64,000 bases of DNA from Oscillospiraceae bacterium (GCA_015063485.1 SVUA01000002.1:1454-65453); one strand, 5' to 3'; positions 4,760 to 24,990 are shown, counted from the stretch's first letter. The notes: generated by a model from the sequence alone, not told the origin. Program-made: numbers and translations.

Positions 4760-5461
4760 TTATTTTAAAAGTATCTCTCTGTTAGTTCCGTAAAAAATAT
4801 CGTCACGTCCTGCTATCTTCTGGCAAAATTTTTCCATCATATCCCATGAATCGTCAATATCAAATTCAAATGTATGCCCCCATATATAAAATATCTTTGG
4901 CGTTTCGGTTATTTCAGGCAATGCAAGAAATTCATCGGCAAGCTCGAAAAGTTTTTCCCAATTTTGATGATATACCGTAGGATCAAATCGATACAAATTA
5001 TCTTGAAGCTCAAAGCTATGATTTTCGGTGATCGTACGAGCGTATTTGATCTTTGTATTCTCGCGTATTACCTGCGCTACACGGTCGTCGTTATTTACTC
5101 CGCCGCATGGGTATGCCATTCCAACGACCTCATATCCGCATATACGCTCAAGATTTTTTCTGTCCTCTTCTACCTGTCTTATTACCTCGGCATCGTCAAG
5201 CGTTGTCAAACGAGGATGATCTAGCGTATGTACCGCTATCTCGTGTCCTGCGTATATATCGGCTATCTCCTCGGCGGTAGGCTTACAGTGAGCTACCGTT
5301 ACGCCATTCCTGATAAGAGAATTAGGTTCTCCGAATTTATTGGAATTGAGATTAAAAGTTGCCCTCAACCCGTATTTATTAAGCATTTTTATAAAACGCT
5401 TATCTTGTGTAGAACCGTCATCGTAACTAAACGTTACCGCTTTCATTCTTCCGTCAAACAT
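4760..5461 (-). CDS. polysaccharide deacetylase (NodB homology / CE4 family)
   Basis: Carries the TFSYDDG and HEIAVHTLDHP motifs typical of NodB-domain deacetylases. No signal peptide. Confidence 0.8.
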   Translation of the reverse strand: MFDGRMKAVTFSYDDGSTQDKRFIKMLNKYGLRATFNLNSNKFGEPNSLIRNGVTVAHCKPTAEEIADIYAGHEIAVHTLDHPRLTTLDDAEVIRQVEEDRKNLERICGYEVVGMAYPCGGVNNDDRVAQVIRENTKIKYARTITENHSFELQDNLYRFDPTVYHQNWEKLFELADEFLALPEITETPKIFYIWGHTFEFDIDDSWDMMEKFCQKIAGRDDIFYGTNREILLK

Positions 5462-5462
5462 T

Positions 5463-6026
5463 TTACATCCTCTCTCTCTTTGTATTCTTTAAAAACCAAT
5501 CCTGTCTTGAGATGCATGAAACATACTCGTTTCTGCTTGCGCCCAAGGAATCCCAATAAACGTTTTTATTAACGTGATGCGGAGAAAAGCCAAGCTTCTC
5601 TTGAACCTTTTGCGAGGACAGATTCCCTTCAATGTAACTGCAAAAAACTCTTTGCATCGAAAGATCCTCAAACGCGTGACGTATGAGCACACTCGCCGCC
5701 TCGGTGCAATATCCGTTTTCCCAATAAGGTACGCCTAACCAATATCCAAGCTCACAATCGGTTTTGGAAAGACCAATATTGCTATTGTGGTACGTCATAA
5801 GCCCCACGCTTCCGATCACTTCGCCCGTTGAACGCAAAACAAGCGCGTATATCTCGGGTTGAGAGTAAACGTCTCTTATGACCGCAAGACTTTCCTTTGG
5901 ACTTTTATGCGGTCTCCAGCCTGCCACTACACTTACGCGAGGATCTTGGGCAAGTCTATATAAGCTTTTGGCATCTGTTTCGCGCCATGCGCGAAGTATC
6001 AGCCTTTTCGTCATAAGTACGGGCAT
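5463..6026 (-). CDS. GNAT family N-acetyltransferase (RimJ/RimL-like)
   Basis: The N-terminus TKRLILRAWRETDAKSLYRLAQDPRV and the ..GYWLGVPYWENGYCTEA.. segment are typical of Acetyltransf_3-type GNATs. Confidence 0.8.
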   Translation of the reverse strand: MPVLMTKRLILRAWRETDAKSLYRLAQDPRVSVVAGWRPHKSPKESLAVIRDVYSQPEIYALVLRSTGEVIGSVGLMTYHNSNIGLSKTDCELGYWLGVPYWENGYCTEAASVLIRHAFEDLSMQRVFCSYIEGNLSSQKVQEKLGFSPHHVNKNVYWDSLGASRNEYVSCISRQDWFLKNTKRERM

Positions 6027-6060: not shown

Positions 6061-6089
6061 ATTATACCACAAAAAGCATCTATTGTCAA
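6061..6089 (-). promoter_or_regulatory. sigma-A type promoter for the GNAT-deacetylase pair
   Basis: On the minus strand: TTGACA (6089-6084), 17 nt, TATAAT (6066-6061), with a TGTGG -16 extension. Confidence 0.6.
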
Positions 6090-6092
6090 CAC

Positions 6093-6128
6093 AAAAAGCC
6101 GTTCGCGCATTTGCGCGAACGGCTTTTT
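6093..6128. terminator. rho-independent terminator ending the large ABC operon (bidirectional geometry)
   Basis: Stem GCCGTTCGCGCA / TGCGCGAACGGC, flanked by AAAAA on one side and TTTTT on the other. Confidence 0.75.
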
Positions 6129-6168: not shown

Positions 6169-7296
6169 TCAGTCTGCGGTAAGACCCGAACGTTCAATAC
6201 CCTGTACGAGATATCTCTGACAGAAGAGATACATAACGATAAGGGGAAGAATGATCATAATTCCGCAAGTGTTACGGATTGCAGCTTCGTAGAGGTTCTG
6301 TCCTGCATAATCTGTATCAAGAGATGAAGGAATACCAACGATCTTAGGCATCAAAACGATATCCGAGCTATCCGTGAAGAATACCGTAGTGTAGAAGTCG
6401 TCGGTCCACTGCCACGAGAACGCGAACAGGAACACGGTGATCATCATAGGTACGGACAAAGGAAGAATGATCGTGAAGAAGGTGTGCATAACACCCGATC
6501 CGTCGATGTACGCGGACTCTTCAAGCTCATCGGGTACGCCTCTGAAGAACTGACGAAGCATAAAGATATAAAGACCGTTCTTAAATGCAAGACCACAAAG
6601 TGAAAGAATGATCAAAGGCCAATAAGAGTCAGTCAATTTAAGACCCTGTGCGCCGTCAAGGAACTTTTCAAAGGTGTCGGGAATAATATCAATAGACTTC
6701 ATAAACTCCGGACAGAAGTTCTTTCCGAAGAAGTTGATACCGCCTCCGTTCAAGAAGTTTCCGATTCCGAAAATATCGAAATAACGGAAATTCATAAACA
6801 TTGAAAGCTGAAGCGTCTGGTGAGGAATTACGAGCGAGAAAATAACCGCCATAAATACCAGCTTGTTACCTTTAAACTTAAACTTTGCAAGTCCGTATCC
6901 TACAAGACAGCAGATAAACGTCTGTATAAGTGCCGTGCTCAAGGAGAGGAAAAGCGTGTTTGTAAAGGCTTGGAGATAGTGTTGATCTACCCATATTGCT
7001 TTATAGGTATCAAGTGTAAAGTTCTTCGGGATAAGTCGTACCGTTACGTCAACGAAGTCATCGGGAGCCATGAATGAACCCGCGATCTTTGTGAAGAACG
7101 GGAAAAGTACGATGTAGGAAATACCGATCAGAAGAACAAGTCTGAACAAATACCATACTACTTTTTTCAAGAAGAAGAGAGACAAGAATTTTGCTTTAAG
7201 TCTTTCCTTCAAGGGAGTTCTTTCGAACTCTACTCTTATCTTGTTTTTGCTCTCTTTCGTTACCTTAGGCTTGTTGTCAATATTCTGTGCGTTCAT
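6169..7296 (-). CDS. carbohydrate ABC transporter permease (MalG-like), second pair
   Basis: Multi-TM protein with the EAA loop ESAYIDGSGVMHTFFTIILPLSVP. It has an unusually long N-terminus and a long extracytoplasmic loop. Confidence 0.8.
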   Translation of the reverse strand: MNAQNIDNKPKVTKESKNKIRVEFERTPLKERLKAKFLSLFFLKKVVWYLFRLVLLIGISYIVLFPFFTKIAGSFMAPDDFVDVTVRLIPKNFTLDTYKAIWVDQHYLQAFTNTLFLSLSTALIQTFICCLVGYGLAKFKFKGNKLVFMAVIFSLVIPHQTLQLSMFMNFRYFDIFGIGNFLNGGGINFFGKNFCPEFMKSIDIIPDTFEKFLDGAQGLKLTDSYWPLIILSLCGLAFKNGLYIFMLRQFFRGVPDELEESAYIDGSGVMHTFFTIILPLSVPMMITVFLFAFSWQWTDDFYTTVFFTDSSDIVLMPKIVGIPSSLDTDYAGQNLYEAAIRNTCGIMIILPLIVMYLFCQRYLVQGIERSGLTAD

Positions 7297-7307
7297 TCTT
7301 TACCTCC

Positions 7308-8267
7308 TTAATCACGTCTCTGGTAGAAGACGAATGCCGAGAATACTGCGGCAAAGATCGCGATGATTCCAATTACTATCAAGAAATACATCCATGCCAT
7401 TGCCGAGCCGATAACGTCTCCGTCGGTCTTCTGCGACATACCTGAAATGTACGTCATTACTACGTTCGATTCCGTTGTAAACGAGTCGATGATCGTATAA
7501 ACGGCATTAACAAGTATCATCGGGCTTATCATCGGGAACGTTATCTTCCAGAAGGTCTCCCAAGCGGTTGCACCGTCGATCTGTACCGACTCATAAATAG
7601 CGGGAGAGATAGACTGCAGACCCGAAAGGAAGATAAGCATCTGTACACCGGAGCGGTTTACGATATCGTAAATGTTATTTATCGCGGTTACAACGTATGT
7701 AACAAGACCTTCGCCGACCGCCATTCCTGAGAACAATCTTTCAACGTCCATCGCAGATACGATACTGTTCGCGGCGCTCTGTCCCGAACCGTCATCGATT
7801 CCTTCCGCGGAATCCATGTAAGAATTAAGAACGTTGTTCGCATCGATCGATTCCATAATACCCGTTGAAAGAATAACGGGAATAAAGAATATCGCGCGGA
7901 ATAAAGCTCTACCAACCATCTTCTGATTCAACAGAACTGCCATAAACAGCGAGAAGATAAGTATCATAGGAATATCGAATACCATATCCTTCAAGCCTGT
8001 AACGAGCGTTTGTACGTAATCTGCATCTTCAGTAATTGCATTTACGTAGTTTGCCCATCCAACGGGGGTAAATGCCATACCCCCGCCCATGATAGGTCTC
8101 ATCGTGTGGAAACTATACCAAATCGAATCGTAAACGATAGGTAAGTAAACCAAAATAAATCCAATTACGAAAGGAAGGACAAATATCCAACCCGCTCTTG
8201 CTTTTCTTTTATCAAGAGAGGCATTTTTTCTCTTTTTAGGAGCTTTTACTTTTACTTCTTTTGTCAT
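7308..8267 (-). CDS. sugar ABC transporter permease (MalF-like), second pair
   Basis: Multi-TM protein with the EAA loop ESVQIDGATAWETFWKITFPMISP. Confidence 0.8.
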   Translation of the reverse strand: MTKEVKVKAPKKRKNASLDKRKARAGWIFVLPFVIGFILVYLPIVYDSIWYSFHTMRPIMGGGMAFTPVGWANYVNAITEDADYVQTLVTGLKDMVFDIPMILIFSLFMAVLLNQKMVGRALFRAIFFIPVILSTGIMESIDANNVLNSYMDSAEGIDDGSGQSAANSIVSAMDVERLFSGMAVGEGLVTYVVTAINNIYDIVNRSGVQMLIFLSGLQSISPAIYESVQIDGATAWETFWKITFPMISPMILVNAVYTIIDSFTTESNVVMTYISGMSQKTDGDVIGSAMAWMYFLIVIGIIAIFAAVFSAFVFYQRRD

Positions 8268-8288
8268 TTTGCTTTTACCTCCCTTTCA

Positions 8289-11200
8289 TCAAGCATTAGT
8301 GGACTTAATAACTATGTAGCCATAAGCCTCAAGTGTGTAAGTGATTCCGTTATCAGCAGTTACGGTTACTGCGTAGTTGTTGAAGTTAAGGATAAACGCC
8401 GTAACACTTGCGTTTTCGGAGTTTACGTATTCCATGTAAACGATCTTGTTTGTATCAGATGCGTACTTGTTATACGCCTCTTCCATCTTATCAGCAGCAA
8501 CGCCTTCATCCTTTTTATTATCTTCCTCAGCAACGTATTCGTAATCCTTGAAACCGTTTATTTCCGCAGGAGCTTCGGTTGCCTCGCCCTTATTAGCATC
8601 AGCATAGAGAGCGAATGCGTCCTTTGCGATCTCTACGATTGAATATTCTGCGGAGTTCGCAGCAACACCGTTACCGGAAATAGTTTCGTAAGCGGTCTTG
8701 TTAGCATCGAGAATAGTCTTGAGCTCGTTTCTGATCTTTGCGGTGAAAGCATCTTCCTTCTCAAGAAGCGCGAGCCCTTCAACTGCCTTTTCATAATCTG
8801 CGATCAACGCACGAGCATCCGCTATCGAGGTATCTGCGAGCTTGTAAATACGGTTGAGAATATCCTCTTGAGAACCGTTGCTCTTTGCAGTTACAAGAGC
8901 AGCTTCTGCATCCTCTTTCTCTTTCTGAGTTGCGTTAGGATCAGCTAAAACAGCATCGTATGCCTTTTGCGCATTGATAAGAATTTCCAACTTAGCGTAC
9001 CACTCCGAAAGAGCTACATAGTTTTCCATGAGATTATAGGTAGATTCACCGTCATCTGGAAGCAATGCTTTACTTATTTCGGGAATACGCTCAAGAATGA
9101 GGATTCTTGCTTCGTGAAGCTGCTTACGAAGTTCTTCCTTCTTAGCCACGCTCAATTCAGCCTCATTCTTTATAGCTTCCTCAACTGCGTTCTTAAGGTC
9201 CTCTTCAAGCTCATCCGCATCGGGAATACGAGTTCCTTCAAGGAACTTATGAGTCTCGATGGTACTTGTCTGAAGATCCTTAAGCAGACCGTTAAGCTCA
9301 CTGTAAAGCGAAACAACGTCATTGAACCAAATATCATATCTTATAGAATAGTAGTGGCTGAGCAGGATATCATTCTTAAGGTTATCAGTATTCTGATAAG
9401 AAAGAATGAAGTTAAGACCCGCACCGCTTTCAAGTGCCTTAAGGAAAGCATATTCCATGTTTCCTTCCATGTTAATAGCAGTACCTGCGTACTCTACGTA
9501 ACCATGGAGAACGATCGCAAGGAAAGGAACTGCTGCAGAAGACTCTGCGAAACGGCTGGAGTCAAGTGCGATATCGGTTATGTAGTCAACGTACTTCCAC
9601 GTGAATACGTTACCGCCCGCGGTCATGACCTTGTTGTAATTCTCACGGATATACTGGAATGCGCGCTCCGTAAAGTCTCTCGAGTCGGAGCGGTTATAAG
9701 GCTCATCCTCGTCGAAGTCGGAGTTCAAGTAAGATCCGAGAGTAGATACCGAAATACCTATCGGGTTGTATTCAAGATACTTCTGCGTGAATTTCTCGTA
9801 GAAGTGGTTGAAGTATGCGGGTGAAAGTGCTAACTCATAATAGCTGATGTAAGTCTGCTTGGTAGCACTGTATTCACGCTTACTGGTATAACGGTCGTCG
9901 ATCGTCTTGACTGCGTGGTTCTTAAGGTTCACACCGTCGAAGAGCGTGTTTGTTTTAGTAAATGCGAAGTCAAAGTCCGGGAAGAGCTGGAAGCCCTTTT
10001 CTCTTGCGGCGGCAGTCAACGCCTCGAAATCCATTCCGCCTTCCTCAACTGCCTTTTCCCACTTGAGATTGTACGGAGCTCTCGGTTCGGTCAAGCCGCC
10101 CTTAGTATAACCCGTCATTATAAAGTTGATGTTGCTGATACCCTTTGCCGCGAACTCGTCGTACATCGTGTTGATATCTGCAAACGTCGTAAGAGGAGTC
10201 ATAACAGTAAAAGGTATGGACAAGAAGCGCTCGGTAGTTTCCATTGCGCCAAACGTCTCGATATAGAGCGGAATATCACTCTTTACGTCCTCGCTTGTCA
10301 GCTTGGTGAGCACTCCCTTCTTGACAAGGTAATCACGGTATGCCTTAGCCATTCCTACATAAGAGGTATCGTAAGTTCCCGTAAGTCCCTTCTCTGCCGC
10401 TACCTCGTCAGAGGTAAGCATAATATAACGAACCTTGTAGCTACCCGTATATTTTCTTGCGGATACGACTGTCCAGGTATCGTTCTGACCTACCGAAATA
10501 GCGTCTGCAACGTTATATGTATCGTTAGGTCTTGGCTTAACCGTCATTTTAACGGTATTGTAGTTATGAGGTATGATCGCATGATATGCCGACAGCTCCA
10601 TCAAAGCGTCGCCTTCTTCAACTATTGCAACGAAGCCGCGCTCTTTATGGTAAGTTTCTACAGGTACTTCTACCTTTTCTTCTTCCTCACCTTCAACCTC
10701 TTCGCCCTCATCTTCCTCAGGCGCTTCCTGCTTTACGATCAACTCTTCGTTCTCGTAAATACCGAATACGGGATAACGAATAGTCTCTTGGTGAGTTCCT
10801 GTGATATCGTGGTAAGCGTAGTCTACGCCGTAGATCTTACCCTGAACGTTTGTGGAGACTCCCAAAGCTGCGGTGTCCTCAAAATCGAAGAGCGTACCCG
10901 AGCCGTCCGGGAAGAATGTGTAACCCGAGTTGGGGTTTTCTCCTGCGCCCATGTAAGGCAGAATGTCTATGCTGTTAAGACGGTAAAGAGACTCGGAGAA
11001 ACGGATACCGTTTGCGGGAAGTCTTACCGATACGCCCATATCATCGAGCGTGTACTCAAGAGCCATCTTGAAGAGCGGAGGATTATCATCTTCACTTTCC
11101 CACTCAACCTTAAGATGGTCTTCATCAAGATCGTCATAGCTATAGTTAGGAGCATAAGTCTTTACGATCTGCTCAAGTCTTGCCTTTTCTGCGTTAGACG

Positions 11201-12014
11201 TTGTGGGGTCCAAAACGTAGATAGGCATCTTCTTGGTGATTGGGAAAGACTTTTGCATCTCTGCTATAATTGTCTGAACGGTCTCAGAACTGGGATCCTT
11301 AAGCAAATAGTAAGAATGGAATTTGTTTTCGAGGATAAACCTATCTGTTTTTGAGTATTCGCCGTCATCATTCGTAAGCATTTCCTTAATAGGATTAAAG
11401 AGCTTAGTTTCATAAGAGGTCTTTTCTATACGTTCGGGAACGAGGTACTTTGCCTGCTCACGTCCGATAGTATACTCTACACGAATACCATTTTTGATAT
11501 TCTTTACGATTATCTGTCCTCTTGAAGCTGCCCATTCATAGCTCCAATATTCCTCTTCCTCGTCAGTTGCAATGTTGGTAAAGTTTACCTTTAACTGAGA
11601 AAGAAGCTGAGATTTGATATCTTCGGTTGCATCCTTGTCTTTATAGACATCATAGGGATTGGAGAAAAGGATCTCGCCGCTAGCAATACACTCAACAGCA
11701 ACCTCTCCGCTATATGCGTCAACGTACAGACGGTAACCGTCCTTCTCAAGACGAAGGTCCATAAGAGCAAGCTTATCTTGAGGAGTTTCGACAATTACGT
11801 CGCCATCGGCAAACTCAATATACGTAGGAGTATCCTTAGTTTCATCCAACATAACGGGCTTTCCCGAAAAATACCAATACGTAGGCTTTGCAGACGTGGT
11901 GTTCTTGGTATAAACAGGACCTTGCGCTCCGTCATTTGCGCTTACCATCATGGTAAATGCGCCCAAAAGCATCAAAACAGCTAAGAGTGTCGATATTATT
12001 CTATTTTTTACCAT
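8289..12014 (-). CDS. 1241-aa secreted protein of unknown function (possibly DUF5696-like)
   Basis: Signal peptide MVKNRIISTLLAVLMLLGAFTMMVSA. The central region has segments such as FFPDGSGTLFDFED and IPLYIETFGAMETTERFLSIPF..NINFIMTGYTKGG..VPFLAIVLHGYVEYAG. There is a poly-acidic insert (EAPEEDEGEEVEGEEEEKVEVPVE) and a ~300-aa Ala/Glu/Lys-rich helical tail, then a short beta-rich C-terminus. The DUF5696 assignment is from memory only. Confidence 0.6.
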   Translation of the reverse strand: MVKNRIISTLLAVLMLLGAFTMMVSANDGAQGPVYTKNTTSAKPTYWYFSGKPVMLDETKDTPTYIEFADGDVIVETPQDKLALMDLRLEKDGYRLYVDAYSGEVAVECIASGEILFSNPYDVYKDKDATEDIKSQLLSQLKVNFTNIATDEEEEYWSYEWAASRGQIIVKNIKNGIRVEYTIGREQAKYLVPERIEKTSYETKLFNPIKEMLTNDDGEYSKTDRFILENKFHSYYLLKDPSSETVQTIIAEMQKSFPITKKMPIYVLDPTTSNAEKARLEQIVKTYAPNYSYDDLDEDHLKVEWESEDDNPPLFKMALEYTLDDMGVSVRLPANGIRFSESLYRLNSIDILPYMGAGENPNSGYTFFPDGSGTLFDFEDTAALGVSTNVQGKIYGVDYAYHDITGTHQETIRYPVFGIYENEELIVKQEAPEEDEGEEVEGEEEEKVEVPVETYHKERGFVAIVEEGDALMELSAYHAIIPHNYNTVKMTVKPRPNDTYNVADAISVGQNDTWTVVSARKYTGSYKVRYIMLTSDEVAAEKGLTGTYDTSYVGMAKAYRDYLVKKGVLTKLTSEDVKSDIPLYIETFGAMETTERFLSIPFTVMTPLTTFADINTMYDEFAAKGISNINFIMTGYTKGGLTEPRAPYNLKWEKAVEEGGMDFEALTAAAREKGFQLFPDFDFAFTKTNTLFDGVNLKNHAVKTIDDRYTSKREYSATKQTYISYYELALSPAYFNHFYEKFTQKYLEYNPIGISVSTLGSYLNSDFDEDEPYNRSDSRDFTERAFQYIRENYNKVMTAGGNVFTWKYVDYITDIALDSSRFAESSAAVPFLAIVLHGYVEYAGTAINMEGNMEYAFLKALESGAGLNFILSYQNTDNLKNDILLSHYYSIRYDIWFNDVVSLYSELNGLLKDLQTSTIETHKFLEGTRIPDADELEEDLKNAVEEAIKNEAELSVAKKEELRKQLHEARILILERIPEISKALLPDDGESTYNLMENYVALSEWYAKLEILINAQKAYDAVLADPNATQKEKEDAEAALVTAKSNGSQEDILNRIYKLADTSIADARALIADYEKAVEGLALLEKEDAFTAKIRNELKTILDANKTAYETISGNGVAANSAEYSIVEIAKDAFALYADANKGEATEAPAEINGFKDYEYVAEEDNKKDEGVAADKMEEAYNKYASDTNKIVYMEYVNSENASVTAFILNFNNYAVTVTADNGITYTLEAYGYIVIKSTNA

Positions 12015-12039
12015 AACAAATATACTTCCTCCTATCTGT

Positions 12040-14262
12040 TTACATTCGGAACTGAATTTCGGTAACGATATTAGTTACAAAGCTTACCAACTTTCCGAGC
12101 AACGTCGAGAAGAGGAGAGCGATGAACATAATAACTATCATACCGCCAAGCGTTCCAAGGGTAGTTCCTATACCCTTACCCATTGAGTAATCGTGTGTAA
12201 CCATCATTCCAAAGAACAACAGCATTCCCATCCAAATGAATCCGATGGTCGTGATAACCGAAAGGATATCAGCTTCCTTAGAAAGAAGGACATTAGATGC
12301 GATAGTTGTAGGAATAATGACCAAGGACAAAGGCATCAACGAATAAGTCGAAGCTATATAAATGTCCTTAAAGCTTCCTTCACCGTCAAACAACGTTGTC
12401 AAGCACCAGTTAGCGATCATCCAAAGTGCCAAAGGCACGCATACGCTAAGCACTACTGCAAAGAACGATGCATACGTCTGTCTCGGGTTAAGTATATAAC
12501 CGCGACCGATCGCCTGATAGTAGAAAGCAATTATAGTGATTCCGAGTATTGTTGTACCTGCGCGAACCGATCCACGCTTTTCATGCTTAAGGTCCCAATA
12601 TCCGTCGAACGGGTGGAACATAAGATGGAATACGTAAAGCAATTCCTGACCGTAGGTTCTCTTCTGTCCCGCTGTAGCAACGCGCTTGTTTACCTTCTTT
12701 GCATACTTGAGGAAGAAGGAACAGCCAAGGCAGATAGCAACTACGAAGATCGGGATAAGAATGATATACTTGGATATCCATTCCTTACGGATCTCCTGAT
12801 ATGCGTTAGAGTAGTTTTCGGTATCGTAAGCAGCCTGATAGTACTCTATAGCTTCTTCGTACTTACCGCTTCTGTAAAGAGCGTTACCGATTCCTATGTA
12901 TGCCGCGTCGAAGTTGGAGTTTCTCTTAAGGATCTCCATCCAGTCGTCGATCGCTTTGTCATACAAACGGTCGTTCTGGTTCTCTATAGCCTTGATAAGA
13001 ATGTTACCGTATTCAGTTCTCTGATACACAGTAAATGATTTCGCGGTCTGGTCGAGAAGCAACATATTGTCGCCCTGATATACGATTCCGGCAAGCTTTA
13101 CTATGTTACCGAGCTGTTTGCCGGTGTCACCGAACGCGAAGAGCAAGTTACCCTGCGTATCGTAAGTAAATACTTTGCTTCTCTTCTGGTCGATTATAGA
13201 CCAAGTTTCCTCAGGACCTACTGCTACGTCAACGACTTTTGATGCGCCGTAGATCTTGTCAGAAGGCTGATTTCTTGCATTATCAACTTCACCCGAAGGC
13301 GGATAGAATCCGTTTCGAGCCATGATCTCCGTACCTGCCGCGTTGAGCATCTTTACGGGAGCGTAGTCACCAGATTTGCTCTTGCTGCTGATAGCGGAAA
13401 GCATCTTGCCTGAATCTACCGAAGAAGTGGTAACGTATATAAATTCTCCTGCAAGAGCGATATTGTTAAATTCCTTCGAAACCAAAGCTTCGGAATTTGC
13501 CTTCTGCTCTTCTGTCTGGAACTTTCTCCAGATCTTATCCCAAGTGCTGATAGAAACCTTCTGTGCACCGATAAATCCGGTGAACTCTCCCGTATCGGTC
13601 ATAACGATGATACCCTGATATGTAGTCGAGGATACAACGTAAAGTCTGTCATACTTATCGACAGCTACCGCAACGGGCTTATAAACCGAACCTTCATCGA
13701 AAAGTTCGGATTCAGGCGCGGGAATAATACGCATGAAGTTACCGTCGTGGTCGAAAGTTACTATACGGTTATTGTTAGTATCGCAAACGAAGATCCTTCC
13801 GGGAACCGTTTCGGTACCTTCTACTCTGTCGGGAGTAATAAATACACCTTGGGGTTTTACAAGGCTATCCGGTACGCCCTGTTCGTTTACGAAGTTTTCG
13901 ATAATGAACTTAAGCTTATAGTAACGGTCCAATACTACGATACGGTTGTTATCCGTGTCAGCGATGTAAACGTTTTCATTAGCGTCTACTTCTATATCAG
14001 AGGGATTACCAAGCGCTACCGCTTTCTTTGCAAGGTCTGCGGAAGAAAGTCCGGGGTAGTGTTTCGCCATGATATTCTTATCGGTAAGTCCCATATAAGC
14101 CGAGTCGACATTCTTTGCGGGAGTATACGCGTCAGGCGAATACAGAGCCGTTCCCGAAATAGAATAGGTATAAGTCTGATACGGAGCAGATGCGCTGATC
14201 GGCAAAGCCATGATCATTACAAAAGCAAATATCAAAGCTATAATTGATGTTACTTTTTTCAT
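12040..14262 (-). CDS. signal peptide + NHL-repeat beta-propeller + TPR + C-terminal Yip1-like multi-TM domain protein
   Basis: Signal peptide MKKVTSIIALIFAFVMIMALPISASA. NHL-type motifs are NENVYIADTDNNRIVVLD and GRIFVCDTNNNRIVTFD. The TPR-like segment is IGIGNALYRSGKYEEAIEYYQAAYD. Five or six TM helices follow in the last ~230 aa, consistent with a Yip1-type architecture. Confidence 0.65.
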   Translation of the reverse strand: MKKVTSIIALIFAFVMIMALPISASAPYQTYTYSISGTALYSPDAYTPAKNVDSAYMGLTDKNIMAKHYPGLSSADLAKKAVALGNPSDIEVDANENVYIADTDNNRIVVLDRYYKLKFIIENFVNEQGVPDSLVKPQGVFITPDRVEGTETVPGRIFVCDTNNNRIVTFDHDGNFMRIIPAPESELFDEGSVYKPVAVAVDKYDRLYVVSSTTYQGIIVMTDTGEFTGFIGAQKVSISTWDKIWRKFQTEEQKANSEALVSKEFNNIALAGEFIYVTTSSVDSGKMLSAISSKSKSGDYAPVKMLNAAGTEIMARNGFYPPSGEVDNARNQPSDKIYGASKVVDVAVGPEETWSIIDQKRSKVFTYDTQGNLLFAFGDTGKQLGNIVKLAGIVYQGDNMLLLDQTAKSFTVYQRTEYGNILIKAIENQNDRLYDKAIDDWMEILKRNSNFDAAYIGIGNALYRSGKYEEAIEYYQAAYDTENYSNAYQEIRKEWISKYIILIPIFVVAICLGCSFFLKYAKKVNKRVATAGQKRTYGQELLYVFHLMFHPFDGYWDLKHEKRGSVRAGTTILGITIIAFYYQAIGRGYILNPRQTYASFFAVVLSVCVPLALWMIANWCLTTLFDGEGSFKDIYIASTYSLMPLSLVIIPTTIASNVLLSKEADILSVITTIGFIWMGMLLFFGMMVTHDYSMGKGIGTTLGTLGGMIVIMFIALLFSTLLGKLVSFVTNIVTEIQFRM

Positions 14263-14277
14263 CTTGTCCTCCTATTA

Positions 14278-15150
14278 TCAGTCCTTCATACCGGACGAAC
14301 CCATCGTTTCGATGATGTTCGACTGGGTAATAACGAATACCATGATCGGAACGAGCATCATTACGACGGTTGCCGCCGCAGACGCGCCCGCACGCTTGAT
14401 ACCGCCGGCAGTGATCTGCTGAATAGCGTAGTTGAGCGATTTGAGCTGCTCCGAGTGGATGTAGATAGACGCGCCTTTGTTCCAAAGATCCTGGAACGAG
14501 TACACGATAAGAGTCAACCAACCGGGCTTAACCATAGGCATCGCGATGATCCAGAAGGTACGAAGCTCTCCTGCACCGTCCAAACGCGAACTTTCAAGCA
14601 CTGCGTCGGTTACGTTGGTCTCCATGAACTGCTTCATCAAGTAAAGTCCGAGCGACGTACCCCATGCGGGAACGATGATAGCCCAATAGGTATCGATCAT
14701 ATTGAGTGCGCTCATAAGAATGAAGCTTGTTACTGCGGTAACGGTCGAGTGGAACATAAGAGATGTTCTTACCGCTTTGAACATCATCTTTCCGCCGGGA
14801 AACTTGATCTTTGCCATCGCATAAGCCGCGAGAGACGAGAAGAACAGGTTTCCTACAGTACCTGCGACAGATGTAAATACTGTGTTAAATACGTACCTTG
14901 AGAACGGAACAAGGTTTCCGCTCATCAAAGTAAACAGATCCTTAAAGTTTCTTCCTGTAGGCTGCATTACGTAGAAGCGAGGGGGGAACATCCAAAGCTC
15001 GTCAAGAGGCTTGAGAGACTGGATAACAACGTAATACATAGGGAGGAACATGAATGCTCCCAATATAACCAGAATGAAAGTAATTCCTGCGTCGCCGCCT
15101 CGGGATCGCGCGAGGACGACTTTATGCTTTCTTGTTCTTAACTTTGCCAT
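14278..15150 (-). CDS. carbohydrate ABC transporter permease (MalG-like), first pair
   Basis: Multi-TM protein with the EAA loop ESSRLDGAGELRTFWIIAMPMVKPG. Confidence 0.85.
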   Translation of the reverse strand: MAKLRTRKHKVVLARSRGGDAGITFILVILGAFMFLPMYYVVIQSLKPLDELWMFPPRFYVMQPTGRNFKDLFTLMSGNLVPFSRYVFNTVFTSVAGTVGNLFFSSLAAYAMAKIKFPGGKMMFKAVRTSLMFHSTVTAVTSFILMSALNMIDTYWAIIVPAWGTSLGLYLMKQFMETNVTDAVLESSRLDGAGELRTFWIIAMPMVKPGWLTLIVYSFQDLWNKGASIYIHSEQLKSLNYAIQQITAGGIKRAGASAAATVVMMLVPIMVFVITQSNIIETMGSSGMKD

Positions 15151-15151
15151 G

Positions 15152-16099
15152 TTACGATCCCACCTTTGACAGAACTTTCTTGATAAGCCCGTTAGCGCCT
15201 ATCATGACCACGAACAGTATAACTGCTATGGTTGAGGAATAACCGATCTCGAAACGCTGCGAACCGTAGTCCTCAAGATGATGGACTATGGTATGCGCCG
15301 CGTAGTCAACTGACGGGAAGCCGCAGAGCGCGGTAACGATTCCGCCGAAACCGAAAGACTGAGTAATGGACATGACCGCACCGAACATAAGCTGAGGCTT
15401 CATGTTAGGAAGCGTTATGTACCAAAGCTCTTGCCAACGGTTACGGATACCGTCAACGGCGCCGGCTTCGAACTGAGCCTTATCAATACCCTGAAGACCT
15501 GCGATAAACGAAAGGAACGTAGTACCGAGTGAGGTCCAAAGAGCAACGATTATACACAGTGGCATTACGTAGTCCGCATCCTGGAACCACGCAATTTCTT
15601 TACTTATAACACCGAGCTTCATAAGCCAAGCGTTTGCCCAACCGTAAGAGTCAGCTGAGAACAAAGTTGCCCATACGAGATATACCTGACCCGAAATGGA
15701 GGGCGCATAGAAGATAAGCGTTACGACCGCTCTGATCTTAGGCGAAAGCTCATTGATGAACCATGCGATCATCAATGCGAGAATATATGAACAAGGTCCT
15801 ACGATCACCGCGAAGATAAGTGTATTCTTTGCTGCGGTGAGGAAGATGTCGTCGTCAAGGAACAGGCGGATATAGTTGTCGAGCCAGACTATGTTCGGCA
15901 TCTCGAGCATGTTAAAGTCTGTAAAGCTCATTATAATTGAAAGCAATACGGGGAGGACGGTAAAGCAGGTGAATACCAGCATATAAGGTGCTACCATAAG
16001 ATACGCTACCTTATTGCGCTTCATCTCTTTCCATGTCCATTGCGCTTTAGTCATATCTTTACGCGCAACTGCTTTCTTTTCAGCCGTTTTTTGTGACAT
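15152..16099 (-). CDS. sugar ABC transporter permease (MalF-like), first pair
   Basis: Multi-TM protein with the EAA loop EAGAVDGIRNRWQELWYITLPNMKPQ. Confidence 0.85.
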   Translation of the reverse strand: MSQKTAEKKAVARKDMTKAQWTWKEMKRNKVAYLMVAPYMLVFTCFTVLPVLLSIIMSFTDFNMLEMPNIVWLDNYIRLFLDDDIFLTAAKNTLIFAVIVGPCSYILALMIAWFINELSPKIRAVVTLIFYAPSISGQVYLVWATLFSADSYGWANAWLMKLGVISKEIAWFQDADYVMPLCIIVALWTSLGTTFLSFIAGLQGIDKAQFEAGAVDGIRNRWQELWYITLPNMKPQLMFGAVMSITQSFGFGGIVTALCGFPSVDYAAHTIVHHLEDYGSQRFEIGYSSTIAVILFVVMIGANGLIKKVLSKVGS

Positions 16100-16133
16100 G
16101 AACTTTTGTCTCCTTCATAAGATTTTTTGCTGA

Positions 16134-19100
16134 TTATTTGTATGCTTCATAGGATTCAAGAGCGTTAGCAGCATCTCTGAGATACTGAACTGCCGACTTT
16201 CTCTCTCCATTTTGAGGCGTACCGAACAGGTCTGCATTCAACTCTTCAAGTGCATCTGCCATTGCGCGGATAGAAGCATAATCTTCGGTTTCATATCCTG
16301 AAATAAGCTTTAGAACGCTGTTTACTGCCTCATCATACGCACTGTTATAAGCAGAAGAGGTCTTGATCGCATTCAACGCCGTCTCTGCCTGAGCCATACG
16401 TTTTTCAGCAAGTGTCTGTCCGACATAGTCAAGCGTTTCGAGTCCGAACTCTGCACGCTTACGTGTGATTTCTTTATTAATTATATTAATGTAGCTCTGA
16501 AGCTCGGTTACGGGGTCTGCATTTTCGTTATACGCATCAAGGAATGCGAAGTTTGTATAACGTCCGATAATGTAAGAACCGGGGTAGTTAGGAATAGATG
16601 CAAGGCTGTTGAACTGTCTTTCAAGCTGGTCGTATTCCTCTGCGGTCCAAGGCAAACTCTCAAGAGCATCAAGATTTGCCGTAGCATGCTTTGCGGAGGG
16701 ACCCATGATAGCAACCATTTCGTTTGCGTAAGCTATCTGACATTCAGAGTCAACGTGCCACTTCATGAATTCCCATGAGCCGTTAACGTTATCGCAACCT
16801 ACTATCATAACGATAGCGGTCATCGTCGATACAGACTTGTTGTTCAAAACGCCTTCTTCATTATAATATCCGGGCATCGGGTAGAAGTTCCACAAACCTT
16901 CGATCTCGGTAGCGAATACCTTAAGCTGATTGTAGGTCGCGGTATAAGAAGGAGCGAATACGATAGGCATCTCACCCGTTCTGAAACGGTTTGCAAGGTC
17001 AAACTGGAAGGGGAAGGAATACATCGTGAACATATCGCACATGGTCTCGAAGGACTCAAGAGCAACGTTCGAATCGAGGTTTATTCTCATTCCGTTGTCA
17101 GCGAAGAGCTCACCGTCCTTCTGATAAAGGAATACTCGGTAGTCTTTCTGCATTCCTATCTGCATATTGTTAGCCTGAAGTACGGGGATCGCTTCCTTAA
17201 CGTCATCCCAAGTCTTAGGAATATCAATATTAAGGTCTGCAAGAATGTCCTCACGAACGAACATCATCGGGAAGGACTGTGTTTCAGGAAGTCCGTAATA
17301 ATGCATTTTATCTTCAGCATCTTCGATTCCCATAACTACCATCGCGGAGTCTGTAAAGTCAGCCGCGATATCGTCAAAGCCATTCATGTCTTCTATCGGG
17401 AGAAGCGCTCCACGAATAGCGTAGTTGATAACGTTATCCTCGCTAAGACCGATATATACGTCAGGTCCCATTTGCGAAAGGATAGAAGGAAGCAACGTTG
17501 CCGCAGCTACGAGCTTAAGGTTTACAGCAATGTTATTTCTGCTCGTAAACTGGTCGTTGATAAGTCCGCGGATAACCTGAGACTGATCTCGACCGTAAGC
17601 AAGCCATACCTCAACGGTATCATCGTCGGTTACTTCAGTCATAGCTCCCATACGGTTGTAGTTACGGAAGAAGGACTGCATAAAGCTTGCGATCTCGTGA
17701 ACGAGTGCTTTCCAGAAGCTTGCCTTAGCCTTGGGCAACGCTTCATTATCAGAAGGCTGGATCATAAGGTAATCAAGCGTCAAAGGCTGTGTCTTTGCGT
17801 CGCTGAGCCAAGTACCGAGCGAACCGATATATGTCTTGAGCTGTTCAAGGTTCTTTGCGATAGTTGAGTCGTCGGTATACATGGTGTCAAGCAAACGCGC
17901 TACCTTTTCAAGAGTTGCTGTCATCGAGCTCTTTATGTTAGCCGCATTAGCAAGTTCCTCTGCTACCGCATTAAGAGCGTTACGCTGGTCACGAAGGTCG
18001 ATGATCGTATCACCCATAACTCGCTTAAAGCCGTAGTCACGGTTTTCATCGGGTTTCGAACCGGTAAGCTTCAATATATTAAGATAGTCGGAGTTTATCG
18101 CGTCAAGAGATTCCTGAACTCTTCTTACGACATCTCCCATGTTGCCAAGAGAAACCTCAAGGCGAAGAGTGTATGTAACACCCTTTTCGAAATAGAACTC
18201 AAGCTGTTGCTCCTTTGCCTCCTGTGTTCCATCCTCATGCTTGACAACGGTTACACCTGTAAGGAAGTCGGACTGCCAATCGGAGCTGTAATCAAACTGA
18301 ACTCTGTTAGCCTCATCGTAAGGAACTCCGTTGTAATAGCCCTTAGCATCAGCGTTAAGTCCCTCGCTGTAAAGCGAAAGTATTCTCGAGGTATACATAC
18401 CGTCAAGCACCGCCTGTTTAAAGCGAGCCGCGATCTTGTACATACCGCTTTGATCTACCGAGAACTTGTATTCGATCCACTGACCGGGAGACTGCCACTT
18501 GTCACCGCCGACAGTGTTAAGGATCGCGAACTTCGTGGACGAAGGAGAGTTCATCGCACTAGTCGTATCGGATATAGGATAAATGGTCTGAGAAGACGCT
18601 GCCGAATAATATTCACCCTCTATCTTGATCTGACCCGCTCCCGCAGCATCGTTATACTGCTTTTTCCAAGTCTCATAAGAAGGAAGATCCACAGGAGTTA
18701 CCATATTTATATTGGAAATAACGATAGGCTCGTTTACAGATTCAAGCGAAACAGTAACAAGTCCCGTTTCATCGTGAGGTTTGAGAACAAGCTCAAACGG
18801 AGTCTGAAGGAATCCGTTTGAATCCTTAAACTCATAAGTCACCCACTCAGGAATGTCGTCAAGACCCGTACGGATCTCGTTAAGGTCAATATCCTTTATA
18901 AAGAAGCGCAACACCTGATCATTAACCACCGCAGAGTTAGCCACGGTCCACGTATCCGGAATAGTATAATTAATGTAGACTTTTCCGTCGCGATCCTCTC
19001 TTACGGGAGCAAATCCCGCAGCAACACCCGTTGCGATGAACTCGTCAACGTTTCCGTCCTTAGGCACTTCAAACGAAGCCTGAGGACGTCTGCTCTGCTC

Positions 19101-19670
19101 AAGCTTCCAAATCTTAGATATCATAAGCGAACGAGCTTCGGAAAAAGGAATAGTTCCGTTTATACGAAGCATTCTCTCGATAGACGCCGATTTGTTTTCC
19201 TCTGGATAATACTCGATCTGCATATTGTAACGAGCAGCCTCTTTAAGAGCAGCATACTCTTCACTATTAGGATCAAGCGTCCAAGTTACGCTACCTGAGC
19301 TGGGTACGTAGATAGCCTTACGACCGTATTTCTCACATATGTGAGGAATAGCGTTCTTATGTGCTTCTTCCTCTTCAGCATCGGTTGCGGGGTCAATAAG
19401 TTCCACTTCCTTACCGTTAGCGCCCGTATACACACCCGCTGCGCCATCGATATAAAGGGGAGCCTTCGCACGACCAACATCTGCGTTTTCCGAGATGTAA
19501 TCGTTGTACGAAATCGCACTCAGCAACTCTTTAATATCCCCGATGTCCGTAATGATCGAAGAGTCGTCATCCTTGCTGCCGCTTGCGCTTGCCGCAACAG
19601 TACCTCCGCCGACCAAGAGAACAAACGCCAGGATAAACGCTGCTACCCTTTGAAATTTCGCAATTTTCAT
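16134..19670 (-). CDS. giant (1178-aa) extracellular solute-binding protein with a long N-terminal extension including a CBM-like module
   Basis: I place the start at ATG 19670 (MKIAKFQRVAAFILAFVLLVGGGTVAASA, a signal peptide), which is preceded by GGAGGA. The track start at 19730 is a GTG with no RBS. The C-terminal ~450 aa look like a family-1 SBP (VEVWLAYGRDQSQVIRGLINDQF..). The N-terminal ~650 aa include IKIEGEYYSAASS..GGDKWQSPGQWIEYKFSVDQSGMYKIAARF, which resembles CBM6/35-type sandwiches. Confidence 0.7.
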   Translation of the reverse strand: MKIAKFQRVAAFILAFVLLVGGGTVAASASGSKDDDSSIITDIGDIKELLSAISYNDYISENADVGRAKAPLYIDGAAGVYTGANGKEVELIDPATDAEEEEAHKNAIPHICEKYGRKAIYVPSSGSVTWTLDPNSEEYAALKEAARYNMQIEYYPEENKSASIERMLRINGTIPFSEARSLMISKIWKLEQSRRPQASFEVPKDGNVDEFIATGVAAGFAPVREDRDGKVYINYTIPDTWTVANSAVVNDQVLRFFIKDIDLNEIRTGLDDIPEWVTYEFKDSNGFLQTPFELVLKPHDETGLVTVSLESVNEPIVISNINMVTPVDLPSYETWKKQYNDAAGAGQIKIEGEYYSAASSQTIYPISDTTSAMNSPSSTKFAILNTVGGDKWQSPGQWIEYKFSVDQSGMYKIAARFKQAVLDGMYTSRILSLYSEGLNADAKGYYNGVPYDEANRVQFDYSSDWQSDFLTGVTVVKHEDGTQEAKEQQLEFYFEKGVTYTLRLEVSLGNMGDVVRRVQESLDAINSDYLNILKLTGSKPDENRDYGFKRVMGDTIIDLRDQRNALNAVAEELANAANIKSSMTATLEKVARLLDTMYTDDSTIAKNLEQLKTYIGSLGTWLSDAKTQPLTLDYLMIQPSDNEALPKAKASFWKALVHEIASFMQSFFRNYNRMGAMTEVTDDDTVEVWLAYGRDQSQVIRGLINDQFTSRNNIAVNLKLVAAATLLPSILSQMGPDVYIGLSEDNVINYAIRGALLPIEDMNGFDDIAADFTDSAMVVMGIEDAEDKMHYYGLPETQSFPMMFVREDILADLNIDIPKTWDDVKEAIPVLQANNMQIGMQKDYRVFLYQKDGELFADNGMRINLDSNVALESFETMCDMFTMYSFPFQFDLANRFRTGEMPIVFAPSYTATYNQLKVFATEIEGLWNFYPMPGYYNEEGVLNNKSVSTMTAIVMIVGCDNVNGSWEFMKWHVDSECQIAYANEMVAIMGPSAKHATANLDALESLPWTAEEYDQLERQFNSLASIPNYPGSYIIGRYTNFAFLDAYNENADPVTELQSYINIINKEITRKRAEFGLETLDYVGQTLAEKRMAQAETALNAIKTSSAYNSAYDEAVNSVLKLISGYETEDYASIRAMADALEELNADLFGTPQNGERKSAVQYLRDAANALESYEAYK

Positions 19671-19821
19671 TCCATAATTCCTCCTGCAGAATAAAATTTT
19701 GAAGAATGCGTGGAAAGGCACATCCTTCACCGCTTTGATGTTTCCATCTATACTTTTTTACCTTACGCTCAAGGCCATCGCAAACAGACGCGCTCGGCTT
19801 TGCGCAGCTGCCGCTTGTCTT

Positions 19822-19854
19822 GAAAAACGCGGTGCGTCGGTAAAATCGCACCGC
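19822..19854 (-). terminator. intrinsic terminator (possible attenuator) inside the 5' leader of the ABC operon
   Basis: The minus-strand RNA would read GCGGUGCG-AUUUUACCGA-CGCACCGC followed by GUUUUUC. It lies between the predicted promoter (19908-19936) and the SBP start (19670). Confidence 0.45.
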
Positions 19855-19907
19855 TAACAACATCCACAAACGCTTTGCGCCGCGAATGCTCACAAAATCG
19901 TACACAT

Positions 19908-19936
19908 ATAATATCATAGAACACAAAAAAAGTCAA
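19908..19936 (-). promoter_or_regulatory. candidate sigma-A promoter of the seven-gene ABC operon
   Basis: On the minus strand: TTGACT (19936-19931), 17 nt, TATTAT (19913-19908). Confidence 0.45.
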
Positions 19937-20505: not shown

Positions 20506-21423
20506 TCAACGCAAGAATCCGTTAACGATCTCTTCTTCGGCTTCCTTTTCAGTGAGCCCGAGAGTCATCAGCTTGACAAGCTGCTCACCCGCGATCTTTC
20601 CGATAGCCGCCTCGTGTATCAAAGACGCATCAGGATGCTCGGCAAGAATTTCAGGAATAGCCTTAACGGTAGCGTTGTTCATAATTATAGCATCGCACTC
20701 GGTGTGACCGTTGCAACAAGAATTGCCCTTTACCCGGGAAATAAATTCCTGCAAAGAACGATCGCAAGCCACCGATCGCGACACAACGTGAGCCCCCGAT
20801 CCCTCACCGTTAAGCTCAACGTCAAACTCCGTACGCGCATATTGGCTTCCGTGAGTCATTATTTTTTCACGAACCGTAAGCGTTGCATTTTTCGACAGTT
20901 TTGCGCGAGTGATTCTATCCGTGGAATCAACGCCCTTTATCTGCGCAGTCTCCATTTCCATATAGGCATTTTCAGCAAGTTCAACGTAAGTTTCGGGATT
21001 CATGACGTTTTTACCCTCGCCATCTCCCTCGCCGTAATGCTTTTCAATATATTTCAATTTTGCATTTTTCGACACAAAAAATGAATGAACTCCGCTATGC
21101 TCCGAGTTTTTCGAACCGCCGTTATGAATACCACAGCCCGCAACTATCGTAACATCGCAATCCTCTCCGATATGAAAATCATTATAAACGAGTTCCTTAA
21201 GTCCCGTCTGCGAAAGTATTACAGGGATATGCATACTTTCATTTTTAGTACCCGCCTTGATATAGATATCTATACCCGGCTTATCAGTCTTTTGAACTAT
21301 CTCTATATTCTCAGAGGAATTTTTTCCGTGAAGCTTTCCGTTTATACGTAAAGAATACGCTCCCGCAGGAACTTCATGAATGCCGGCTACTTGCTCAAGA
21401 AGATTTTGTTGAATCTTATCCAT
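20506..21423 (-). CDS. SufB/SufD family Fe-S cluster assembly scaffold protein (short form, ~305 aa)
   Basis: The C-terminal signature LIHEAAIGKIAGEQLVKLMTLGLTEKEAEEEIVNGF matches the SufB/SufD C-terminus. I place the start at ATG 21423 (MDKIQQN..), preceded by AAGGAGGAA. Confidence 0.8.
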   Translation of the reverse strand: MDKIQQNLLEQVAGIHEVPAGAYSLRINGKLHGKNSSENIEIVQKTDKPGIDIYIKAGTKNESMHIPVILSQTGLKELVYNDFHIGEDCDVTIVAGCGIHNGGSKNSEHSGVHSFFVSKNAKLKYIEKHYGEGDGEGKNVMNPETYVELAENAYMEMETAQIKGVDSTDRITRAKLSKNATLTVREKIMTHGSQYARTEFDVELNGEGSGAHVVSRSVACDRSLQEFISRVKGNSCCNGHTECDAIIMNNATVKAIPEILAEHPDASLIHEAAIGKIAGEQLVKLMTLGLTEKEAEEEIVNGFLR

Positions 21424-21437
21424 TTTTCCATTCCTCC

Positions 21438-23433: not shown

Positions 23434-23444
23434 TTTTTCCTCCA

Positions 23445-24863: not shown

Positions 24864-24990
24864 GTCCGTCCTCCTCTCTTTGTAATTTTCGCATTTTTCC
24901 ACCATTATAAATATGATAGCATATTTTTTGCTTTTTTTCAACATTTTTGCGGCAAATATTTGTCTTTCTTTCCCAAATGTGTTTTACGAT

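Follow-up and report, generated by a model that had tools for sequence, protein, structure and literature searches.

The window considered here, a stretch of 64,000 nucleotides from an Oscillospiraceae bacterium (GCA_015063485.1 SVUA01000002.1:1454-65453), contains seven genes, g1 to g7, in which the parts of an ATP-binding cassette (ABC) importer are encoded together with two large accessory proteins of the surface or membrane. All seven open reading frames (ORFs) lie on the minus strand between 19670 and 6169, where a preliminary description of this DNA had placed them. In order, they encode a giant solute-binding protein (SBP; g1), a MalF-like and a MalG-like permease (g2 and g3, pair A), a membrane protein with NHL, TPR, and Yip1 regions (g4), a 1241-residue DUF5696 protein (g5), and a second MalF-like and MalG-like permease (g6 and g7, pair B). 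Matches to Pfam and NCBIfam, together with a search using the isolated C terminus of g1, confirm both the parts and the order that had been proposed. The ORF listing also bears out the close packing described before, with intergenic gaps of 34, 1, 15, 25, 21, and 11 nt from g1 to g7, and a GGAGG-like ribosome-binding site precedes each of the seven starts. The view that the seven genes form one operon-like unit is therefore supported. The same seven-gene stretch is present in near-identical form on a Joint Genome Institute (JGI) metagenome contig (L001).

The boundaries of the unit differ in how clearly they can be drawn. A mechanical ORF call begins g1 at a GTG at 19730, giving 1198 residues, which is 60 nt upstream of an ATG at 19670. 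We take the ATG to be the real start because a GGAGG lies 9 nt upstream of it and because a public protein of 1178 residues (P0121), annotated as an extracellular solute-binding protein, is 100% identical to g1. At the other end, the strong terminator that had been proposed can be read directly from the sequence as a plain hairpin and T-run, GCCGTTCGCGC-aaat-GCGCGAACGGC followed by TTTTTGTG, although an automated scan missed it. The proposed promoter stands less firmly. It does resemble the consensus, but promoter-like matches are not enriched in the window (23 found versus 27.9 expected in shuffles), and it is for this reason a consensus match only, a plausible site within an AT-rich intergenic region of ~800 nt. 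A hairpin resembling a terminator, AGCGGTGCG-(10 nt)-CGCACCGCG with TTTTTC after it, lies in the leader between this site and g1. A leader attenuator was considered and rejected, as the hairpin is not kept in 58 related leaders. An Rfam search of the whole window, leader included, gave no match.

The order of the seven genes is conserved over large evolutionary distances. When one genome per species was scanned, a relative turned up in at least 434 species-level genomes, from which 80 loci were taken, and gene order was read by tblastn with the seven window proteins. All 58 of the other related loci with enough sequence have the order g1 to g7, and the incomplete loci are without exception collinear subsets of it. 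The permeases are 58–99% identical across the related loci (the one exception being a g7 match of 28% in L041), and g5 is only 41–85% identical. The core order is also the same in nine of nine distant contexts, where identity to g5 is ~21–28% in eight and 40% in the other (L087). These contexts are plasmid pNP243 of Butyrivibrio fibrisolvens, a 508-kb replicon of Paenibacillus cellulosilyticus, Paenibacillus mucilaginosus, Neobacillus kokaensis, Cohnella luojiensis, and four further contigs. In the Paenibacillus version, neighboring genes overlap by 4–14 nt, a sign of translational coupling. The flanks are another matter. No regulator, ATPase, or glycoside hydrolase recurs beside the Oscillospirales loci (62 with upstream and 70 with downstream sequence), the commonest flank cluster is found in at most 17 loci, and the flank clusters consist of housekeeping genes (SufBD, alanyl-tRNA synthetase, NifS/U-like) or spurious ORFs. 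Recurrence of the order in each related locus examined, with differing flanks, is more than chance would produce; the preliminary description had named loss of the arrangement in related genomes as a point against itself, and the arrangement is kept. The family is large: the DUF5696 core matches 3,849 representatives of 50%-identity clusters in a protein library (E ≤ 0.001). Carriers include abundant uncultured Oscillospirales of rumen and gut as well as cultivable Paenibacillus, Cohnella, Neobacillus, and Butyrivibrio. A g5 homologue from a cultured host is WP_073386913.1 of Butyrivibrio fibrisolvens D1.

Judged by their sequences, the four permeases all belong to type-I ABC importers. EAA-type coupling loops are visible in g2, g3, g6, and g7, so that the MalF/MalG-like pair of a CUT1 importer is present twice. 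The BPD_transp_1 scores of g2, g6, and g7 lie above the Pfam cut-off of 26.4 bits, whereas that of g3 (20.3 bits) lies under it. Pair A resembles pair A elsewhere, with g2 being 40–59% identical to F permeases and g3 33–55% identical to G permeases, and g6 is 32–42% identical to the pair-B F permeases of other loci but only ~23% identical to pair A. Between pair A and pair B, identity is ~21–24%. A recent duplication of the permease pairs can be rejected: within an operon, the two pairs are less alike than either is to the pair at the matching position in other classes. On these identities, both pairs are orthologous by position across Bacilli and Clostridia and are ancient and distinct. This positional orthology implies that the two-pair design either predates the split between Bacilli and Clostridia or moved across it as a block.

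Full-length g1 has no match in Pfam or NCBIfam. Its C-terminal 488 residues alone match SBP_bac_8 (E 1.6e-16; 61 bits, cut-off 27) and SBP_bac_1 (E 4e-12), and g1 thus contains the SBP_bac_1/8-class extracytoplasmic binding protein found in CUT1 systems. In an AlphaFold2 (AF2) model of g1 (pLDDT 79), Foldseek relates the SBP domain to 5yse, a β-1,2-glucooligosaccharide binding protein (E 1.6e-14, target TM-score 0.82). A profile of residues 338–512 finds the family 35 carbohydrate-binding module (CBM35) of cycloisomaltooligosaccharide glucanotransferase (CITase; 5x7g, E 1.5e-5) and, further down, the CBM35 of CsxA (2vzp, E 0.01) and a CBM6 (2y8k, E 0.2). With the Pfam models CBM_6 and CBM_35, one of 16 members matches in this region (E 0.04–0.06), none reaching threshold; the earlier guess that the big SBP would carry a CBM6/35 module thus holds at the level of profiles. 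Together these matches show a true oligosaccharide SBP domain at the C-terminal end of g1, with a CBM35-like module ahead of it. The Butyrivibrio (34% identity over 980 residues) and Paenibacillus (27%) versions of g1 have the same architecture throughout.

The g4 protein is built from an NHL β-propeller (residues ~30–420), a TPR region (~430–490), a transmembrane (TM) helix (500–518), and a Yip1 domain (546–713). Assignment to the Yip1 family is above the Pfam threshold, with hydrophobic segments at residues 598–726, and the domain is 41% identical to a stand-alone YIP1 protein of Butyrivibrio. In five of the nine distant contexts (Butyrivibrio, Cohnella, L088, L089, and L090), the NHL plus TM part and the Yip1 part are encoded by separate, adjacent genes. 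A passage in PMC4887032, citing Yamada et al. (2012), reports that the Yip1-family protein YknW modulates assembly of the ABC transporter YknXYZ.

The protein encoded by g5 matches only PF18952 (DUF5696) and no existing CAZy or Pfam glycoside hydrolase (GH) family by sequence. A full-length sequence search of the PDB found nothing, and a full-length profile gave nothing but coiled-coil noise, which came from the helical insert. An AF2 model covering residues 46–1241 (pLDDT 73.8, pTM 0.64) has the predicted N-terminal sandwich, (β/α)8 barrel, and C-terminal sandwich of the GH129/GH101/GH31/GH97 group. With this model, Foldseek retrieves from the PDB a Zobellia 3,6-anhydro-D-galactosidase of GH129 type (5opq; E 1e-18, target TM-score 0.59), NagBb of Bifidobacterium (GH129, 5wzn; E about 1e-13 to 3e-13), a pneumococcal endo-α-GalNAcase (GH101, 5a59; E 6e-9), MYORG (GH31, 7qqf; E 1e-6), and GH97 enzymes (E 5e-5). 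A profile of the g5 core also has NagBb among its top PDB matches, weakly (E 0.066) and over barrel strands 1–3, where LTGYANGG aligns with LDGWAQPGY.

Among 17 homologues that are 21–61% identical, D398, N486, D766, N848, E862, and H922 are invariant, and D370 and R775 are nearly so. Each DUF5696 homologue inspected has a signal peptide, a lipobox, or a TM anchor, which points to a surface location. From the predicted fold and the invariant polar residues, g5 is probably the surface glycosidase of the system, and the earlier statement that the locus has no hydrolase is, on the same grounds, probably wrong. The helical insert of g5 varies greatly in length, from its absence in the ~750-residue proteins of Bacilli to ~1000 residues in the 2016-residue proteins of some Clostridia. 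The variation was seen among the g5 homologues of L002-L081, for example those at L081 (9830-15880) and L057 (9824-15871), and one library representative has 2545 residues. The idea that g5 and g1 act as a wall-spanning pair was rejected, as their helical lengths do not convincingly co-vary (Spearman 0.29, on non-independent data).

No MalK/MsmX-type ATPase is encoded in the window, the nearest thing to one being a SufC-like ATPase at 23% identity. Shared, unlinked ATPases such as MsmX and MsmK are common in Firmicutes, and the lack of an ATPase in the window fits this habit. In three Bacilli loci, the giant SBP gene is immediately preceded by a co-directional MalK/MsmX-type ATPase gene (ABC_tran, OB_MalK, TOBE_2). 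The absence of an ATPase noted previously is therefore true of the window, but in the Paenibacillus and Neobacillus versions a MalK-type ATPase is the first gene of the operon. The proposal that two translocators share one SBP is uncertain. There is no second SBP in the window, and none recurs beside the 58 Oscillospirales loci, but an ordinary SBP of ~460–500 residues adjoins the module in the subtype with split NHL and Yip1 genes. These ordinary SBPs are related to one another (24–31% identity), and one of the two permease pairs may rely on such an SBP as its receptor. Genes of ABC exporter type (ABC_membrane plus ABC_tran, with DUF1854 in L089) directly follow the module at L084 (14272-17827) and L089 (14534-17222).

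The distant modules lie amid varied carbohydrate-active enzymes (CAZymes) for plant glycans: GH43; GH26 with GH113 and GH9; GH2 with GH38; GH30 with GH35; and GH95 with GH10 and an esterase. Regulators of LacI or AraC type stand beside the distant modules of Bacilli and Lachnospiraceae. None was found in or beside the window cassette, and none recurs in the Oscillospirales flanks, so that the window cassette is without the regulator of a Gram-positive polysaccharide utilization locus (gpPUL). The claim that the system has no regulator accordingly stands for the window and its Oscillospirales relatives and fails for the Bacilli and Lachnospiraceae versions.

Table 1. Features of the seven-gene unit and of associated genes. 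Coordinates without a prefix are those of the window; L-numbers denote related loci.
Feature	Location	Strand	Basis or remarks
Promoter-like site	19908..19936	-	TTGACT, 17-nt spacer, TATTAT, extended TG; 10/12 consensus matches
5' leader, ~240 nt	19671..19907	-	Includes hairpin and U-run at ~19815-19855
g1, 1178-aa giant solute-binding protein	16134..19670	-	Signal/anchor, β-sandwich modules, helical bundle, SBP domain, C-terminal helical tail
g1 aa 338-512, CBM35/CBM6-like β-sandwich	18135..18659	-	Profile search of PDB
g1 aa ~630-1080, oligosaccharide-type SBP domain	16431..17783	-	Foldseek, SBP_bac_8, and weaker PDB sequence match
g2, 315-aa MalF/UgpA-like permease, pair A	15152..16099	-	BPD_transp_1; EAA-type loop FEAGAVDG...ITLP
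g3, 290-aa MalG/UgpE-like permease, pair A	14278..15150	-	NCBIfam UgpE, E 1e-20
g4, 740-aa NHL-TPR-Yip1 protein	12040..14262	-	Signal peptide, NHL, TPR, TM helix, Yip1 multi-TM domain
g4 Yip1 domain (PF04893)	12124..12627	-	E 2.3e-13; 50.8 bits, cut-off 28.6
g5, 1241-aa secreted or anchored DUF5696 protein	8289..12014	-	PF18952, E 1.7e-133
g5 core, aa 300-940	9195..11117	-	Predicted GH129/GH101/GH31-like β-sandwich and (β/α)8 barrel
g5 helical insert, aa ~933-1140	8595..9218	-	Long helices in model; length varies with lineage
g5 terminal β-sandwich, aa ~1191-1237	8304..8444	-	Model; faint Glyco_hydro_42C match, E 0.087
g6, 319-aa MalF-like permease, pair B	7308..8267	-	BPD_transp_1
g7, 375-aa MalG-like permease, pair B	6169..7296	-	BPD_transp_1; extra ~60-aa loop, aa ~165-230
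Intrinsic terminator	6093..6128	-	11-bp GC-rich stem, 4-nt loop, T-run; read directly from sequence
Linked ATPase gene, P. cellulosilyticus	L083 2979-4088		Eight-gene operon
Linked ATPase gene, P. mucilaginosus	L084 1787-2896		Eight-gene operon
Linked ATPase gene, Neobacillus	L085 1774-2892		Eight-gene operon
Ordinary SBP gene	L082 16534-18039
Ordinary SBP gene	L086 1555-2931
Ordinary SBP gene	L089 1660-3042
Ordinary SBP gene	L090 10096-11511

We favor, with modest confidence, a reading in which the locus encodes a self-contained Gram-positive apparatus of the cell surface for the capture, cleavage, and import of glycans. At the membrane surface, an extracellular polysaccharide would be held by the CBM-like modules of g1, perhaps together with the NHL propeller in g4, and the membrane-tethered DUF5696 enzyme would cleave it, by fold analogy probably at α-glycosidic linkages. 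The SBP domain of g1 would take up the oligosaccharide products and dock on a permease pair, and a shared ATPase of MsmX/MalK type, encoded elsewhere in the organism, would drive import through the two non-identical translocators, which may take two classes of product. The Yip1 domain of g4 could serve as an assembly scaffold that ties the extracellular parts to the translocators, by analogy with YknW. For contacts of g5 or g1 with the permeases, the extra loop of g7 would be an obvious candidate.

Several observations weigh against this reading. Its catalysis, complex formation, division of labor between the pairs, and scaffold role of Yip1 are all steps that we infer, and the role given to the second permease pair is a guess, with a second SBP accompanying the module in one subtype. 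The g5 model is moderately confident, with parts of the barrel poorly modeled (residues 640–687, 719–732, and 771–783 in model numbering), and the target TM-scores to glycosidases reach only ~0.6. A profile of the C-terminal half of the g5 core finds no glycosidase by sequence. D766 lies in an NSD motif and E862 is likewise invariant, and yet the model around D766 is of low confidence and the sequence does not align to a known catalytic site; the two residues are candidates only for nucleophile and acid/base. The corresponding catalytic pairs are D435/E478 in NagBb and D764/E796 in GH101. The flanking CAZymes differ in each distant locus, which would be odd if g5 had one fixed specificity, and the Oscillospirales cassette, which has no regulator, lies amid housekeeping genes.

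Some of these observations would also suit a looser arrangement, the main rival, in which the operon merely co-transcribes two ordinary, independent CUT1 importers. The giant SBP would then serve pair A, and a conventional SBP, from a neighboring gene or one elsewhere, would serve pair B; g4 and g5 would be co-regulated surface proteins and not subunits, with g5 perhaps a glycan binder that does not cleave. The related ordinary SBP that neighbors the module in Butyrivibrio, Cohnella, L089, and L090 speaks for this arrangement, and the low identity between the pairs and an acid/base residue that cannot be placed in g5 agree with it as well. We nevertheless think it unlikely. A second SBP is absent from the window and does not recur at the Oscillospirales loci, the invariant Asp, Asn, Glu, and His residues of g5 speak for an active site or for a site of precise binding, and g4 and g5 always lie between the pairs, at identities as low as 22% and as high as 99%, with flanks that change from locus to locus. 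A fixed, interleaved order of this kind despite turnover of the flanks is a pattern typical of genes whose products interact physically.

A different role altogether is also conceivable, namely that of a housekeeping system that trims and recycles envelope or extracellular glycopolymers of the cell itself and does not forage for nutrients. The lack of a regulator in the Oscillospirales cassette and its SufBD, alanyl-tRNA synthetase, and NifS/U-like neighbors would be in keeping with such a role, as would a GNAT and polysaccharide deacetylase gene pair and an MBOAT-like gene near the cassette in the window. However, neither these window neighbors nor the housekeeping genes are conserved, the modules of Bacilli and Lachnospiraceae are embedded amid plant-polysaccharide hydrolases and LacI/AraC regulators, and some Paenibacillus genomes have two DUF5696 paralogues, as expected of diversified nutrient loci. 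We consider a housekeeping role improbable. Adjacency by chance or through recent shared ancestry, with no functional unit at all, is scarcely credible: complete loci and distant contexts in two classes share one order (58/58 and 9/9) between unrelated flanks, and the short gaps in the window and the gene overlaps in Bacilli effectively refute it.

The surface-apparatus reading can be carried further, to a version that we put forward tentatively and that is doubtful as a whole. The seven proteins and a MalK-type ATPase would form one stable supercomplex and a new architectural class of ABC importer, in which a Yip1 scaffold with an NHL propeller joins two non-identical type-I translocators to a surface enzyme that would be the first of a new glycoside hydrolase family (DUF5696). 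Cleavage and import would be physically coupled, the helical insert would set the reach of the enzyme through the cell wall, and the complex would be a Gram-positive counterpart of the utilisome of Bacteroidetes.

The module can be compared with several known systems. It has in common with the CUT1 importers MalEFGK2, MsmEFGK, and UgpBAEC an SBP_bac_1/8-type domain and MalF/MalG-like permeases with EAA loops, and its ATPase is unlinked in the window, as with MsmX/MsmK, and of a linked MalK type in the Bacilli versions. Unlike these importers, the module has two non-identical permease pairs in one operon, an SBP ~2.5–3 times as large as normal, with CBM-like and helical modules, and two large surface or membrane accessory proteins that always lie between its pairs. 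With gpPULs it shares the combination of an ABC carbohydrate transporter and a surface glycosidase-like protein, and in Bacilli and Lachnospiraceae it is flanked by CAZymes and LacI/AraC regulators. The window and its close relatives differ in having no regulator, and the core of the module stays invariant while the CAZymes change, which is more in the manner of a portable engine than of a substrate-specific locus. In its predicted mode of working, the module follows the logic of a gpPUL, with a CUT1 ABC importer coupled to a glycosidase at the surface.

The predicted core fold of g5, with an invariant Asp after the predicted fourth barrel strand, is that of GH129, GH101, GH31, and GH97 enzymes. 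The likeness does not extend to significant sequence similarity, and g5 is further set apart by a variable helical insert of 0 to ~1000 residues and by being always encoded inside an ABC transporter operon. The YknWXYZ system of Bacillus, as described in a passage in PMC4887032, likewise encodes a bacterial Yip1-domain membrane protein with an ABC transporter. YknYZ, however, is an exporter of MacB type that has a membrane fusion protein, whereas the transporters of the module are type-I importers; the Yip1 domain of the module comes with an extracellular NHL propeller, either in one protein or as a separate partner, and its link to the transporter is one of genomic association. Bacteroidetes Sus-like utilisomes (SusCD, a surface glycan-binding protein, and a glycoside hydrolase) also couple binding, cleavage, and import at the surface through co-encoded proteins, a likeness that would be one of functional analogy only. 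The module has no TonB-dependent transporter or outer membrane, and its import would be driven by an ABC system.

We know of no described example that combines two ancient permease pairs, an SBP of ~3 times the usual size, an obligatory NHL/Yip1 protein, and an enzyme-like protein outside the CAZy families. The preliminary description was correct that such neighborhoods are annotated as DUF5696 and YIP1-family proteins, and our literature search bore out its remark that no functional study was known: no paper mentioning DUF5696 or PF18952 was found in the library searched, and searches for YIP1 with ABC permease and for GH129 with DUF gave nothing relevant. If the proposed function is right, DUF5696 would be a new glycoside hydrolase family, and bacterial Yip1 and NHL proteins would gain a role in nutrient import. 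It would also show Gram-positive fiber degraders coupling surface depolymerization to ABC uptake by way of two translocators. The module is directly testable, as cultured, genetically tractable hosts carry the same module.

The genes around the cassette in the window include several with features of their own. Right after the operon terminator, at 6061-6089 (−), lies a perfect σ70 consensus (TTGACA, 17 nt, TATAAT, extended TG; 12/12), which precedes the GNAT acetyltransferase gene (5463-6026, −) and the polysaccharide deacetylase gene (4760-5461, −). This pair has the look of a unit of its own, and related cassettes do not have it as a conserved neighbor. The upstream neighbors, at 22393-24944 (−) and 20506-22145 (−), are a 499-residue MBOAT-like protein (a weak match of 22.0 bits, below the Pfam cut-off of 27 bits) and a 350-residue protein without a Pfam match, then the SufC-like ATPase and SufBD. 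SufBD is found upstream of the cassette in 17 related loci, a recurrence that probably reflects shared synteny in one clade.

On the opposite strand, upstream of the putative cassette promoter and not part of the cassette, is an ORF of 657 residues (25470-27443, +). The near-identical contig L001 has a gene of the same length with DUF4964, DUF5127, and GtaA six-hairpin domains (glutaminase-A-like, with a glycosidase-like fold), followed further on by an AraC-type regulator; by position and length, we infer that the window ORF is this GtaA-type gene. Beyond the GNAT and deacetylase pair, the region 157-3320 (−) encodes a 272-residue σ70-family factor that matches an extracytoplasmic function (ECF) model (2502-3320), followed by a 781-residue protein with a DUF3108-like segment, and the two may be a sigma/anti-sigma pair.

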